A DNA stretch of 54,745 nucleotides, the filler included, from Sluysia triapertura (taxonomy: Eukaryota): assembly GCA_046118255.1 (NCBI GenBank). It is 4 parts of 4 records of this genome, joined end to end, with 100 filler letters (N's around TTAATTAATTAA, not from the genome) between each part and the next. Parts side by side here need not be neighbours in the genome. Positions count along the whole stretch, not along the records: positions 11,032 to 24,137 come from JBJNIA010059319.1; positions 24,238 to 35,400 come from JBJNIA010188089.1; positions 35,501 to 54,745 come from JBJNIA010085359.1; 1 more part is not named here. One strand, 5' to 3'. The notes beneath the pieces were generated by a model that saw nothing but the letters and a program-made list of their open reading frames with translations, ran no database searches and was not told where the DNA came from. Below are positions 13,318 through 39,083 of the stretch, piece after piece. A program made the translations under genes and the position numbers. Numbering within the stretch: position 1 is the first letter of the stretch; every line of letters begins with the position of its first letter.

Positions 13318-14450
13318 TGTAGTGGTCAACACTCACAACTTAAAATTATCAAAACATTATATTCAACACTCATAATTCAAACTTCACTAAAACATAATAT
13401 CTAAAGCATTTCATACTATCGAACTACATCAACTCAATCATCATAAACAACACTCTACATTTATAATATCTCATCAACTCATGTATACCAACAATTCGAC
13501 TAACACCCTCAACCATCTACTTTATAACATACTCAGATAATTAATCCAGAATAATCCACAACATTCACTCAAAAACTAATTGATCGAACAAACCACAACC
13601 ACAATATATAATACAGAAATCATAAATACACTAACACCACTTAACAACTTTAACAAGTACCTTAGACTTAGAAAACATTTACATTAAAATCTCCAACCAA
13701 TTACACCAAACTAAATCAACTTCATTTACACATGTTCATTATCAATACTCATTTTTAACGACACTACAAATACGCTAGGATTTATTTTCTAATCGTCTTT
13801 TAAAATTGAACAAACTACAACCTTTCAATAAGCATCTCAAACTATCATATTCAAGGCATAAATCGTGTTATTAATTACAAACCATTAATAAATTTTAGTA
13901 ATTTATTCTAACATTCTTCGTTTCAAGTACAACTCAAATCATTTCTTTTATCTTTAGAAATAAATATAATAAAGCTTTAGAGAATTCATTATCTCAATAT
14001 GAAGCAACAACGATAACCGAGACGTAGCATACCTCGTTACCGTTGATCCTTCACAGTATGTCATCTGTTTTTATTTCTCTTTATTTTTTATTTATTTATA
14101 TGTAAGAACTAGAATAATTTTAAAGAAAAGATCGTTTAGGTTATCAAAAGAAAGATTTATGCGATCTTTATTTAAGAACAATAATAATAATGACAATGTT
14201 GTTATTAATGTTATTATTATTATTGCTATCCTTCACTAAAATTACTTTTAATAAATTTAATTCATTAATATCAAAATAGTTGCTGCCTCATCAGTATTGA
14301 CACTACTGTTTATCAATGTCATTAGAGTGCCAAAACTGATGATGGTTAGCAATCTCAAGTTAATTCCATATCATAGAATTTTATACATCACCCAATCAGA
14401 GTACATATTACTGAAAATACTCACAAATACTCTGATTGGGCAAGTCAAAA
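13318..14450 (+). mobile_element. Head copy A of unclassified TGTRGTGG element (terminus + C/A-rich tract + hairpin array)
   Basis: Starts TGTAGTGGTCAAC. 13980-14450 aligns to 35608-36087 (AGAATTCATTATCT..GAAGCAACAACGATAACCGA; TGTAAGAA..TAAAGAAAAGATCG; GATGATGGTTAGCAATC; CATCACCCAATCAGAG). Confidence 0.8.
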
Positions 14451-14647
14451 ATAGATTGTTAGTGTTAATAGTAGCCAAAAAATACATAAACCCAAATTAA
14501 AACTATATTGGATAACCAATAGTCTGCCACACAACATTGATTTATTTTTGTGGTATTTACTGATGAGTAAAAAGAGAATGTTAAAAAAATTAATACTGTG
14601 TTACTGTTAAAAAGACGATTATATCTAAAATATCGAATTTAAAAAAG

Positions 14648-16850
14648 ATGAACAATGCGAGATTTTCTCATACCTTCTCTATGTTTAATAAAGTTGCATC
14701 AAAGAATTTATTTTTATATCATCGTAACGATAACACTGTTAATATTATCAATAATGGATACTTTAATTCAACTGTTTGTGGTTTAAATACGACAGTTAAT
14801 TTCGAATCGACATTACCAAGTTCAACAATAAATGTTACTTTAGTAAATATTGGAAAAACCCAACTTATATTACTTAGACCTTTAATTATGTTAAAAGACG
14901 AGCGACAACCTACTGACTTAGTTTTCATAGTAATCACATTCAAGCAGAACCATCTATAAAGACAAATTTTTCAACGCAAGAACCGACATCAGTTCACAAT
15001 ATATTTCATTCCATAACTACTATGTCGCAAAATTCTAGTTGTCTTCAGGATAAAGATGTGTACTTTGATTATTCGTATTTATTGAGTATATTATATGAAT
15101 CGACCCAATCTCTTAATTTAACAAATTATCATGCAAATAATACCCGTTTCCTATTTATCGTTTTTCCAACGACTTCGCAACTCGAAAAGGTCAAACAAGA
15201 AATAAGTTGTATTAACAAAGAACAATCATCATATGATGATCTTGTCTTCCTACAATCAATCGTAGATAAGTATATGAATTTATAATTAAAGATTCTGTCA
15301 GGTTTAGAAGTAATTTATATGTCACATCCTTATGTTACATATTCTGTTAAAGTTGATAATGATGTCTCTCCCAATGTTCCACGACTTATCGATATATTTA
15401 ATAACAATTTACTCAAAGCACAAAACTCTCCACGTATAATTAGTAATTTACGGTTTTAATGCTGGATTGATTAGACGTTTTAAATCAAAATGGTAAGTTG
15501 CCTACGTTAATTATAGTGTATCAGGATTACATGGCTACGCTTTTTACTCTGATGAAACTATCAATGTAAACAATAATTACCACTTAAAGAAAAACAACCA
15601 AATTGAATTCGATCCTCATGAGTCAATCATCCGTAGTTATCACATAATCAAGCTGATTTACCTTCATTGTGTATACATGAACATATACCAGAACCAAATT
15701 GTCATGAAGATCAAGTACGCACGTAAAGTTGTCGATTTCCTACGATTCCTACAGTACAATCATAGAGCATTTCAAGTTGCAACTTGTCAATCAACGGTTA
15801 TCTACAGGTCAAAAGCAAAAATCTAGTAATTCAATCTCGTTGTGTGATAGTCGATTCCTGAACTATTCTACGATGCTACTTTTAGTAATAACAGATATCA
15901 GAACATTCAAGGAAATACTCAATTTCCCTCCGAACATGTTTACGTGGATCTCTGACAAAGAAGTAATTCTTACTTATTTGAACGTTTTAAAACTAGCACG
16001 CCATTCTATATGTGAAACTTCAACAATAAAATTCAATCCAAGGATGCAATATCAATTATTAGACAAAGCACCTCAATCAAAGTTATTTATTAGCGATTTT
16101 ACGAATGGTTTGACTTTGGTTTAATCTTTAAGAACGTTGCAGATACCGCTGTAATCAATGTGGGTTTTAATTTAATATGTTCACTAACTTTTGAATCAGT
16201 TTATAAAGTTACCGATCGGATCTGTGAGGCGAAACAGGATGTGGGATATAACAATGAACTTAGAAGAATAGGAGATAACAAAAAAGGCAAAACTTTCAAT
16301 CTCAGAACTTTTAATCTGAATCTTCAAAATTTGATCGTTAAATATAAGCTGATTAATGTGTATTTATTAAATTTTCTAATTTATTTATTAAAAAGATTGT
16401 TCTCATTGTCACACAAAGTCATGACAAAAATACGTATCTTGAAATTAACAAAATTAAACAAGTATGAAATTCCCGATACTGTAGAATTTCAACCTATCCA
16501 ACTCTTGGGTAGGCACTCTAAGATTATTACGTTTGTAACCCCTCTACAAGATGTTCCATCAAAATTGAAAGCATTTTGATAATATCTGTTAAAGAATTAG
16601 ATAATTTATTCACAAAGACTAATAATAAAGTTCCTCATGTTATTTTAACTTTGCTATTAAAACTTCCTCATTATGAACGAGATAAGACAAACATTTTATC
16701 GTCAATTAAGCTTAAATTTGTAATAACGTTATTAGTTTATAAGGTTAAAAATTATTATGGCTATCTTGAAATTATAATACAACCAAATTGGTTTAGGGAT
16801 CACTTCCTCCTAAAGTTGTAATGACAACTTAACATTTCCAGCTATTGAAT
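14648..16850 (+). pseudogene. Cargo A: long intronless ORF broken by stops and frameshifts, unknown product
   Basis: Chain of consecutive plus-strand ORFs (14648-14959, 15022-15285, 15729-16124, 16160-16579, 16576-16821) joined by coding-like sequence, directly downstream of head A. Confidence 0.55.
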
Positions 16851-17148
16851 ATGAAATGAGTTCTCTTAATTGTTTGCTTATGAAATGAATTATGTATATG
16901 ATACGAAACAAATAATTTATTCTTTTTGTATAACTGTCACATAAAATTATTAACATATTCTCTTCAGCCTTAAGGGCTTTTAAATTAACTAAAAGTTTTT
17001 AAATTGATACATGACATACGACAAATATAAACATTTATAAACACACAGCAATAATTCTCTTATAAAAAGTTATATGAATAACTAAATGTCCCAAAGAAAC
17101 GAGTTAAATTAAAACGTTTCAAATATTCGATTAAATAAAAAATCTAAC

Positions 17149-38110: not shown

Positions 38111-38349
38111 ATATTATATTATATTATATTGCATTACACTATATTATATATTATTATTATTGTTGTTGTTGTTGTTATTATTATTATTGTTGTTATTAGC
38201 TTCAACATGATTTCGATATATAAATACCACTACTTTCGATTAATTTTAAAAATATATCTTCACTAAATAATTATTTGTAGTAACAGTGGTGGTAGTAGTA
38301 GTAGTAGCAGTGGTAGAAATGGTAGTATGTTAGTAGTAGTAGCAGTAGT

Positions 38350-38620
38350 AGTATAACTACTACTTAGAATATTGCTTAGAATATTTAGATTGTTATCATT
38401 TTCGATAGTGTCCGTAATAACTTCTTCCGATGTTTTAGAGTTATGAGCTTCAATTTCTCTGACGACTTCCAATACTTCATCAACAAATGATTCATCTTGC
38501 CGATAAGATAGTTGTCTGAGTCTTTTAACCGTTACACCTCTCAATTTTCATCGTATCAGTCATATTATCTTCATTTACCGCCAATTTACTAATGAACAGC
38601 TCTCCACATTGGAATTTTTA
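38350..38620 (-). pseudogene. Short decayed ORF convergent with cargo B, downstream of arm G
   Basis: RGVTVKRLRQLSYRQDESFVDEVLEVVREIEAHNSK..., running into a microsatellite tract. Confidence 0.3.
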
Positions 38621-39083
38621 ACAAAAATAGTATAAATAATAATATTAGAAATAAATATCACAATAATATTATACTTTCATTTGTAAAAAATTAAAAACAA
38701 AAATAATAAAAAATAATAAATATAATTAATAATAATAGTAGTAGTAATAAAAATAAACACGTGCATACAAAAAGGAAACGAAGAGTAAAAACAGCAGTAA
38801 CAACAATGGTTAAAACAATTAGAGAATTATTGTAACAATATAAATATTATTATGTTTATAGTTATTATAACAGCAATCAGAAAATTATTATAACAATAGT
38901 AATTATAATTGTGATAATAATTATGGTAATTGTAATTATAAATTATGACTGTGTTTATTTTTGAATAGAGAAACTTGTTTAATAATTTGTTTATATAAGA
39001 TGTGTCGGTATGTGTTAGTATTTGTTTGTAATGATTACGAGTTAACCTGGAGTTCACTACATTAATGATTGGAGTTCACTACA
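38621..39083 (-). mobile_element. Arm G with duplicated TGTAGTG terminus
   Basis: TGGAGTTCACTACAT occurs twice (39048-39062, 39070-39084). Read inward it is C/A-rich then T-rich like arms F/H, but it cannot be aligned to them in detail. Confidence 0.5.

Follow-up and report, generated by a model that had tools for sequence, protein, structure and literature searches.

The window analysed here is a stretch of 54,745 nucleotides from Sluysia triapertura, made up of four parts of four records joined with N filler. The animal genome is AT-rich; its GC content, the size of its introns and its remnants of transposons would allow only a guess at the group, such as an orthonectid, a myxozoan or a flatworm. 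It carries five copies of a head repeat, at the places given by the original prediction (A at 13318+, D at 20618+, E at 27089-, C at 20617- and B at 35501+).

13318..14480, + strand: head A, with a TGTAGTGG terminus, then a C/A-skewed tract and TGTAAGAA at 14101
14170..14232, + strand: AAT/ATT palindrome of head A (motif and folding analysis)
14280..14352, + strand: hairpin 1 of head A (motif and folding analysis)
14392/14439, + strand: inverted CCAATCAGA pair in hairpin 2 of head A
20030..20617, - strand: head C, its first 450 nt or so missing; it adjoins head D in a back-to-back arrangement
20618..21790, + strand: head D, with a TGGGGTGGCCAAC terminus and a disrupted hairpin 1; it may form the other end of element E
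25900..27089, - strand: head E; an (ATT)n tract lies ahead of it
35501..36120, + strand: 3' half of head B, the start hidden by an N gap

Head repeats

The heads form two subfamilies, A/B and C/D/E, which are 68–78% alike inside each. In pairwise alignments heads A and B agree at 77% over 192 nt and at 74% over 355 nt, D and E at 68% over 507 nt, C and D at 71% over 123 nt and C and E at 69% over 163 nt. Against locally shuffled controls these pairs reach z values of 63 (A–B), 53 (D–E), 10 (C–D) and 6 (C–E). Pairs across the subfamilies reach only 1.1–15.6 with the matching limited to the AAT/ATT region, and mainly the order of the motifs is common to both. Thus the head, predicted to be constant, has kept its layout but not its sequence, which differs between A/B and C/D/E.

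The TGT(T)AAGAA motif is present in all five heads. As to the rest of the predicted layout, the folds are each found in only four of the five: the AAT/ATT palindrome (folding z about -5), hairpin 1 (z -2.1 to -4.6, head D having the disrupted one) and hairpin 2 (z -2.1 to -5.5). In head E the core motif lies at 27080 and is preceded by three added GGT units. The sequence CCAAYCAGA occurs four times, every time in a head, where 0.32 occurrences are expected. In hairpin 1, 4 of the 16 pairs are changed on both sides, in a comparison of four sequences only. The folding comparison gave no consistent sense-strand preference of the head hairpins, which thus lend no independent support to an RNA stage. 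A search of Rfam returned no match up to E 1, and a bacterial promoter scan, a type of scan not relevant here, stayed at chance level. Readings of the hairpins as hammerhead, primer binding site (PBS) or adenovirus-like origin were set aside for lack of conservation between the copies.

Termini and element boundaries

Additional inward-facing TGT(A/G)GTG ends are present; one closes A and another probably closes B.

10444..10540, + strand: short orphan terminus of the D/E type
17400..17851, - strand: inward-facing right end near A, with TGTAGTG terminus, C/A tract and AAT/ATT palindrome
38600..39083, - strand: candidate right end of B, with TGTAGTGAACTCC twice (39083, 39061), C-skewed inward
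46169..46620, + strand: orphan copy of the 17851-type end

TGTNR termini are found at A, E, 10444, 17851, 39083 and 46169, while D has TGGGG (six of seven fit). The alignment of homologous copies stops at the TG terminus for the ends at 17851- and 46169+, which are 74% alike over 156 nt, and within 3 nt for D and E. Of the 11 sites at which the terminal motif occurs outside the heads, 4 are followed by a C skew of 0.39 or more in the inward direction, compared with 4–7% of all positions. A CACTA identity was rejected because homology runs inward of TGTAGTG and not of CACTACA. The CACTACA at 13762 within head A fits, by our estimate, the local richness in C and A.

The pairing of ends is less certain. 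For A, the first 40 nt of the inverted end resemble A's own with p 0.0003 versus random 40-mers, a value that is partly circular because the site was chosen by motif; the terminal inverted repeat (TIR) with 17851 consists of about 10 near-perfect and about 30 loosely matching nucleotides. The D–E arms are more than 1 kb long and about 68% alike. This pairing spans two N gaps, and the arms have diverged by about 30% although cargo E looks young. The candidate right end of B is not alignable to that of A. At least one end pairing may be wrong, since the heads of A and B are common to both and the supposed right ends are not alignable.

We found no target-site duplication (TSD) of 4–11 nt, end offsets allowed, around A or D–E, both of them old copies with uncertain pairing of ends. 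No close direct repeat follows any of the five heads, the 3' side of E being crossed by N gaps; the only real downstream direct match leads from E to C (69% over 163 nt), and C carries its own cargo. We found no poly(A) tail, Helitron end or mobility gene in the window. No PBS is evident by eye, and by tRNA scan the window holds no tRNA gene as a test primer.

Reading frames behind the heads

Behind four of the heads lie sense coding regions, in the following referred to as cargos.

14594..16821, + strand: cargo A, decayed sense coding mosaic with 8 breaks
14905..15650, + strand: beta-1,3-galactosyltransferase (GalT)-derived part of cargo A; core match 15142–15426, outer limits by eye
18461..19926, - strand: cargo C, decayed sense coding mosaic with 4 breaks
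19138..19650, - strand: internal fragment of the eukaryotic DNA primase small subunit (PriS) in cargo C, collinear with residues 150–331 of PDB 7uy8_C
21800..23040, no strand assigned: region after D, slightly GC-richer, with a long frame on neither strand and no Pfam match
24240..25847, - strand: cargo E, one frame of more than 500 codons with two stops and no frameshift, ending in an N gap
24459..24551, - strand: Unkempt-type CCCH zinc-finger fragment of cargo E (PF25427, E 8.7e-4, below cut-off; PDB 5elh, E 0.0094)
24732..24959, - strand: KIDINS220 SAM-like domain of cargo E (PF23307, E 1.9e-14)
about 25647..25715, - strand: N-terminal hydrophobic helix of cargo E; about 230 further residues of this cargo have no assigned match
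36238..38110, + strand: cargo B, decayed sense frame with 5 breaks

The open-frame cover on the sense strand of A, B, C and E is 0.71–0.99, compared with 0.07–0.14 in shuffles and 0–0.23 on the antisense strand; the region behind D reaches 0.39 (p 0.06). Over the 7.2 kb of the four cargos we count 19 frame breaks in sense (A 8, B 5, C 4, E 2) versus about 113 in shuffles and 99 in antisense. The same-strand frames of 1.5 to 2.2 kb or more that had been proposed for A, B, C and E are thus real as sense frames, but they are broken and not single ORFs. The last 245 codons of B are without the usual codon-position GC pattern. Every cargo is unique within the window. As predicted, the cargos are not alignable to each other (no blastp cross match at E ≤ 1) and contain nothing recognisable of a mobility gene, their translations matching no transposase, reverse transcriptase, gag or capsid family.

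Cargo identities

Judged by their matches, the cargos are unrelated mosaics of animal host-gene pieces, neither orphan nor viral, and the donors that can be regarded as demonstrated by sequence are three families plus one weaker. The GalT part of cargo A matches PF01762 (E 3.8e-9 and 1.6e-10) and PDB 8zwp (E 0.0018). The PriS piece of cargo C matches PF01896 with E 1.7e-4, under the curated cut-off, and the PDB entry with E 0.001, and its conserved motif is degraded. An alternative-frame reading of the middle of C was unsupported, the 45-residue piece having no PriS match. Cargo C also shows a CCCH-like motif by eye at about 18905–18961, with no database match.

For the SAM-like domain of cargo E there are 32 library matches, all centred on the SAM domain. 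Full-length KIDINS220 proteins match cargo E only around this domain (blastp), the remaining KIDINS220 being absent, and the KIDINS220 matches are animal where named. A KDM5 origin of the zinc finger was ranked under Unkempt (KDM5B E 0.03 versus Unkempt E 0.0094 plus a Pfam match). A single-sequence fold of cargo E has a mean pLDDT of 37.8. In cargo B two LRR-like motifs are seen by eye at about 36465–36570, and the best PDB match is an LRR with a nonsignificant E of 1.8. Outside these motifs Pfam and PDB searches found no identity for cargo B, and the ESM Atlas gave no usable match for cargo B or for residues 30–250 of cargo E. Word-based homolog searches returned nothing for cargo E among 1,689 candidates and nothing for the PriS region among 232.

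These identities bear on the idea that a multipartite DNA virus or plasmid became endogenised in segments, in which the head would be the common region or origin and host-derived genes the payload. Conserved hairpins and strand skew would fit an origin; each unit also has a single frame, and a fragment of a primase is present. But the donors are cellular and fragmentary, the primase is a eukaryotic PriS with a degraded motif, and the heads differ by 25–35% or more where a near-identical common region would be expected. Neither the head motifs nor the cargos occur in viral and metagenome contigs, and PHROGs gave no match (0/12), a weak argument as these collections are poor in animal viruses. 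We therefore consider this origin, which had been put forward in the original prediction, as very unlikely. The expanded orphan gene family suggested alongside it is likewise weakened by the recognisable host-gene pieces.

Possible frame maintenance

The SAM domain of cargo E scores 74 bits, whereas all 13 natural members score 95–122. Neutral drift down to this score corresponds to a DNA change of about 8–10% and predicts about 8–10 stops and 7–8 frameshifts per 500 codons; cargo E shows two and none. This suggests that selection held the cargo frame open, an argument that would not hold should the KIDINS220 of the host itself have diverged further than any of the 13 sampled members.

Frame maintenance in E would also suit a reading in which heads and cargos move independently. 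The heads would either be mobile ends in their own right, each bearing a promoter, or a promoter module that has been domesticated, and chimeric retrocopies landing behind them would be expressed and kept temporarily as lineage-specific genes. The mismatched right ends, the missing TSD, the orphan ends at 10444 and 46169, the cargo-less head D and the uniqueness of all cargos in the window agree with it. It would demand, however, four independent retrocopies at equal offset and orientation within 26 kb, which is improbable, and all four cargos are now broken. We hold this reading to be unlikely.

Introns and probable capture route

The host gene in the window has five introns of 34–39 nt, all inside its first 630 nt, and a last exon of about 500 nt without intron, for which a word-based homolog search found nothing among 206 candidates. 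The predicted spacing of one intron every 140 nt or so thus does not extend to the last exon. There are no host-type mini-intron candidates in C or E. The candidates in A and B need no introns to explain them, because a plain frameshift yields one too in 101 of 300 simulations. Genes for beta3-GalT are often intron-poor, so cargo A says little on introns. With a single host gene as yardstick for intron density and the absence of introns in the cargos judged without donor genes, capture was probably mostly at the RNA rather than the DNA level, by odds of somewhat under two to one. The retroposed look that had been predicted fits best, but the alternative of non-host cargo does not hold, host-gene pieces having been identified.

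Sense-strand, intronless cargo raises the question of an LTR derivative like maize Bs1. The head would be a 5' LTR, or head, cargo and tail together a giant solo LTR; host mRNAs would have been fused by template switching inside the particle and the retro-genes lost. The head has the size of an LTR and a promoter-like layout, Gypsy LTRs too end in TGTNR according to the accessible part of PMC2836005, and sense, intronless multi-gene chimeras are described in the portion of PMC5131818 at hand as product of LTR-mediated retroposition. The same portion has the model depend on both LTRs, whereas none of the five heads has a close downstream direct repeat, and neither TSD nor evident PBS accompanies them. 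The LTR derivative is in our opinion improbable, though the least so of the rivals weighed here.

Rolling-circle elements were considered as well. Helitrons leave no TSD and end in 5' TC (or TT) and in a 3' hairpin plus CTRR. A constant 5' end followed by a variable captured 3' part would correspond to a Helitron or Helentron, as would the missing TSD, the internal microsatellite and the hairpins. Yet the ends found here are TG and thus mismatch this consensus, there is no RepHel in the window, and a hairpin plus CTRR turned up in one of four regions scanned, weak (-6.1 kcal/mol) and 500 nt past the frame. DNA read-through capture would moreover be expected to retain introns. Helitrons do capture multiple gene fragments, as the available text of PMC6431247 describes, but we regard this explanation as the least probable of all.

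Discussion

We suggest, with a probability of roughly 0.55, that the elements are decayed non-autonomous TG...CA transposons of the Pack type; their cargo would probably stem from spliced mRNA and have remained open for a time. There would be several related subfamilies of such host-gene-capturing transposons, each copy having decayed after insertion. The long end, that is, the head, would carry the recognition site for a helper enzyme; going by the TGTNR ends, this helper would probably be an integrase-type DDE enzyme. Inverted CCAAT-type boxes and the hairpins point to the head probably being promoter and leader as well. The interior would have lost all element genes and now hold 1.5–2.3 kb of coding sequence of host origin, joined from genes unrelated to each other, on the strand of the head and without visible introns. 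Pieces of spliced mRNA could have been fused via template switching of a reverse transcriptase or via cDNA-templated gap repair. The fused frames would then have been open for a period, either translated or with the open frame protecting the transcript. Head and cargo would have transposed as one unit, although no cargo has a known second copy. Among sequencing runs one was listed with 0.57 of the sampled words, perhaps the source sample itself, and none of RNA, which speaks neither for nor against this.

A bolder version is doubtful: a hybrid gene-shuffling element, spread through the whole lineage, with TG...CA DNA ends, no paired LTRs and an RNA-derived filling, whose subfamily-specific in-frame chimeras of several host mRNAs, placed behind a conserved head with promoter and hairpins, were translated and long selected. 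If true, the element would steadily supply new chimeric proteins to an animal that is probably parasitic.

Of the options first proposed, a TG...CA element with variable cargo fits best, with its TGTNR ends and no mobility gene, but its two specific versions fail, the LTR version because none of the heads is followed by a matching direct repeat and the Ginger version because the 4-bp TSD and the TIR of 40–270 bp are absent. We found no description of this element in a search of mostly open-access literature. The label of an undescribed family is justified for the family and its mix of features but not for the phenomenon, as gene-capturing non-autonomous elements are already known.

Four multi-gene or gene-derived cargos lie within 26 kb, all on the strand of the head and apparently spliced. 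If the genome resembles the window, it would offer many natural replicates for studying the capture route, microhomology and frame selection. Such elements are a possible source of the orphan genes abundant in fast-evolving small animals. Broken primase, GalT and KIDINS220 matches in such genomes can be cargo and not lost host genes.

Comparison with known systems

The mechanism, as far as analogy goes, would resemble Pack-TIR and GingerRoot capture and that of maize Bs1, yet fall short of each in one defining feature. Like Pack-TIRs and Pack-MULEs, the elements have chimeric host-gene fragments inside non-autonomous ends and no transposase. Unlike them they have a structured end of 1.15 kb, unequal ends and cargo from several genes, nearly all of it coding on the sense strand. 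The matching TIR pair and superfamily TSD that mark that class, about 9 bp in MULEs, are not seen here. The accessible sections of PMC8277862 list 370 animal Pack-TIRs in 100 genomes, so that capture is known but seemingly sparse; most are single-copy captures at the DNA level, often of nearby DNA, and intronless captures were excluded by filter. Some are transcribed, and the family Ssk-FB4 is protein-coding, in the same sections. For myxozoans pack-MULEs are described in the part of bioRxiv 10.64898/2026.02.11.705288 at hand.

With Ginger1 and Ginger2 the window ends share TGTNR termini (PMC2836005, in part), and with GingerRoots the carrying of gene fragments, found in 22 of 77 GingerRoots, some with two genes and usually with the transposase lost (PMC6839031, in part). 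The available portions of both reports give these groups TIRs of 40–270 bp and TSDs of 4–6 bp, and PMC6839031 describes captures that retain introns. Here we see no TIR of that length, no TSD, no retained introns and no integrase-like transposase.

The Bs1 and LTR chimeric retrocopies, as presented in the accessible parts of PMC13317346 and PMC5131818, are flanked by a direct LTR on either side and usually retain remnants of the retrotransposon, whereas neither a second LTR nor a gag/pol remnant is present here. They fuse incomplete, intron-free copies of two or three unrelated host mRNAs under an element promoter, and the Bs1 chimera is transcribed and translated. It is this sense-strand, intronless, multi-gene cargo, with introns judged without donors, that the elements described here have in common with Bs1.

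Two head subfamilies with a common plan

The five non-coding heads of about 1.1 kb that the original prediction had placed at 13318 (A, plus strand), about 35501 (B, plus), 20617 (C, minus, truncated), 20618 (D, plus) and 27089 (E, minus) are all confirmed, and a profile built from them found no sixth full head in the window. They fall into two subfamilies, A/B (74-77% alike) and C/D/E (68-78% alike), with z scores against local shuffles of 63 for A-B, 53 for D-E, 10 for C-D and 6 for C-E. Between the subfamilies only the AAT/ATT region can be aligned (z 1.1-15.6). The head is thus constant, as had been proposed, in the order of its motifs but not in its sequence. 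This order is the TG terminus, a C/A tract, TGT(T)AAGAA (in all five heads), an AAT/ATT palindrome, a CATCA/TGATG-type hairpin and, in four of five heads, a CCAA(T/C)CAGA hairpin with a GTCAA-like motif behind it. In most copies the hairpins fold more strongly than shuffled sequence, and among four sequences 4 of 16 pairs of hairpin 1 are changed on both sides; a fold comparison of both strands gave no consistent preference for the sense strand. CCAAYCAGA occurs four times (0.32 expected), always inside a head. We take it to be an NF-Y-type box with a putative promoter role. The heads are 25-35% diverged from each other, whereas the decay of the sequence behind head E is only about 2-3%, so the copies represent old, separate subfamilies.

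Other sequence in the window

The window is eukaryotic DNA with a GC content of about 24-25%, from an animal host whose introns are tiny. The analysis drew on this window and on public protein libraries. The N gaps at 10932-11030, 24138-24237 and 35240-35500 contain the artificial linker TTAATTAATTAA; (AAT)n tracts border several gaps and joins over them are uncertain. The following features were assigned:

5857-6983, minus: host gene, Pfam matches to C2H2 fingers only
50269-50640, plus: CENP-B/pogo-type HTH of a DNA-transposon remnant (Pfam E 0.0014)
900-2050 (minus), 11110-12345 (minus), 47673-48720 (plus): another repeat family, copies of 1.1-1.25 kb, 67-75% alike
48877-49083 (minus), 689-803 (minus): partial copies of this family
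10682-10838/33135-33277, 27889-28165/47190-47474, 17697-17851/46169-46323: two-copy repeats of 150-290 nt, 67-74% identity

The other repeat family is C/A-skewed and of head length like the heads, with no cargo seen; its copy at 47673 begins with AGTAGTGGCAAAC, which loosely resembles the head terminus. Pieces at 29300-30200 and 54327-54745 (both minus) have no Pfam match and are presumably decayed hAT-like transposases, and we likewise assume a hAT-like end for a short decayed element at 34280-34636. At 28653-28946 (plus) a 97-codon frame, whose product would have three cysteines and a hydrophobic N-terminus, follows an AAT repeat and a short C-skewed tract. This frame matches nothing in Pfam or PHROGs and possibly encodes a small secreted protein. 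Short coding-like stretches at 39082-39800 and 53228-53377 (both minus; no Pfam match) are possibly host exons or further decayed cargo.

Cargos are decayed coding mosaics

Behind heads A, B, C and E, sense frames of at least 60 codons cover 0.71-0.99 of the sequence, compared with 0.07-0.14 in shuffles, 0-0.23 in antisense, 0.11 in 15 background tiles and 0.39 for D. The claim that a head leads into an intronless frame on its own strand therefore stands for these four cargos as to sense coverage, but the frames are broken: the minimum number of breaks is 8, 5, 4 and 2 in A, B, C and E versus shuffled means of 31.5, 31.8, 23.9 and 24.8. The region after D has 13 and 17 breaks on its two strands versus 18 and 19 when shuffled.

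The cargos had been called not alignable and free of recognisable transposase, gag or RT. In agreement, we found no protein similarity between them, and their translations gave no match to transposase, RT, gag, capsid or phage families. That the elements are viral segments is very improbable.

Twenty-eight translations, read through with stops as X, were tested against Pfam and three matched. Cargo A contains a galactosyltransferase part (Galactosyl_T, E 3.8e-9; B3GALT5 in the PDB, E 0.0018), followed by about 1.2 kb of further coding sequence without assigned family. Cargo C carries an internal piece of the primase small subunit (DNA_primase_S, E 1e-3), collinear with eukaryotic PriS from the PDB across 171 query residues (E 0.001), and then a frame of 215 codons, in which visual inspection shows a CCCH-like motif. 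Cargo B has LRR-like motifs only (E 1.8) and is otherwise without family match. Cargo E is ordered as a hydrophobic helix, 230 residues without match, a KIDINS220 piece (SAM_KIDINS220, E 1.9e-14), a zinc-finger piece (UNK-like CCCH, E 8.7e-4; in the PDB Unkempt, E 0.0094, or alternatively KDM5B, E 0.03) and a remainder without match. A full HMMER scan with cargo E gave 32 matches, all centred on the SAM domain; PF23307 was present in 20 of 20 checked, and 4 of 10 looked up had names (one fish KIDINS220-like cluster, three flatworm proteins). Since full-length KIDINS220-type members align only around the SAM domain, cargo E is a mosaic.

The host gene, which we take to be ZNF207/BuGZ, contains five introns, each 34-39 nt long with GT-AG borders. 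An intron scan recovered all five and found no mini-intron candidates in cargos C or E. Overlapping candidates in cargos A (seven) and B (four) are uninformative because 101 of 300 simulations of plain frameshifts also yield candidates. The host gene carries its five introns within about 900 coding nt; on this one-gene estimate, a genomic capture of 1.5 kb would usually be expected to contain some introns.

The SAM domain of cargo E scores 74 bits versus 95-122 for 13 natural members, each left out in turn. Under simulated neutral change the median score falls to this level at 8-10% divergence, where about 8-10 stops along with 7-8 frameshifts would be expected in every 500 codons; cargo E has 2 and 0. 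Unless the gene of the host is itself exceptionally divergent, this deficit points to drift of the protein within a frame that was held open.

Element ends and their pairing

TG(T/G)RGTG occurs at 15 sites in the window (7.5 expected). A C-over-G skew of at least 0.39 follows 8 of the 15, compared with 4-7% of all positions, and still 4 of 11 without A, D, E and one tandem duplicate. One of these four, 17851 (minus), faces A. Its alignment with the copy at 46169 (plus; 74% over 156 nt) stops exactly at the TG, which identifies 17851 as an element end; it is a short-form version of the head plan. Judged from this arrangement, A is interpretable as an element of 4.5 kb whose two ends are unequal. 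B may close at 39083 (minus), an end not alignable with A's right end. D and E face each other across two N gaps. They may bound a single 6.5-kb element, and this would account for D having no cargo of its own. A terminus-like TGTGTTGGCCAACTTC at 22459-22474, in the region after D and with no skew following, could mark the real right end of E or have arisen by chance within captured sequence.

Frames facing the main cargo lie at 38263-38547 (94 codons, with a coding-like GC pattern) and 17149-17424 (91 codons), both minus, with starts some 430-540 nt inward of the two right ends; expression of small frames from the short ends is also possible. At 27089-27160 and 11032-11108, head E and one end of the other repeat family each begin right after a long (ATT)n tract, and microsatellites are possible preferred insertion targets.

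No target-site duplication was found for A or D-E, no poly(A) and no convincing Helitron end. An LTR derivative of the Bs1 type is unlikely: paired LTRs are lacking, and none of the five heads has a close direct repeat downstream. Helitrons, whose expected ends are absent, are the least probable of the readings considered.

Proposed mechanism and comparison with known systems

We favor, with a probability of roughly 0.55, a set of non-autonomous TG-ended transposons that capture genes. An unseen helper would move the elements, transcription would start from the head, spliced pieces of host coding sequence would fill the interior, and the copies would decay once inserted. This reading is weakest in how the ends are paired, in the absence of target-site duplications and in the lack of a second copy of any cargo. 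Alternatively, the ends could be promoters independent of the retrogenes lying behind them; this too we consider unlikely and rank after the LTR derivative.

Pack-TIRs and Pack-MULEs (PMC8277862; bioRxiv 10.64898/2026.02.11.705288) and GingerRoot (PMC6839031) likewise enclose host fragments between element ends, and Bs1 (PMC13317346) and LTR-mediated retrocopies (PMC5131818) share sense-strand, intronless, multi-gene cargo. For Ginger (PMC2836005) the TGTNR rule holds here, whereas the TIR length differs and the target-site duplication is absent. Helitrons (PMC6431247) were compared as well. Ends of the usual Helitron consensus are missing here. Because the agreement with each family is only partial, we place the element in none of the Pack, Ginger, LTR or Helitron families. 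A search of the literature, confined to main texts and covering few subscription papers, found no published description of it. The feature is real and is a variant of an already known gene-capture phenomenon. In this one window it goes beyond an ordinary Pack element in its density, strict strand bias, apparent RNA route and hinted frame selection.
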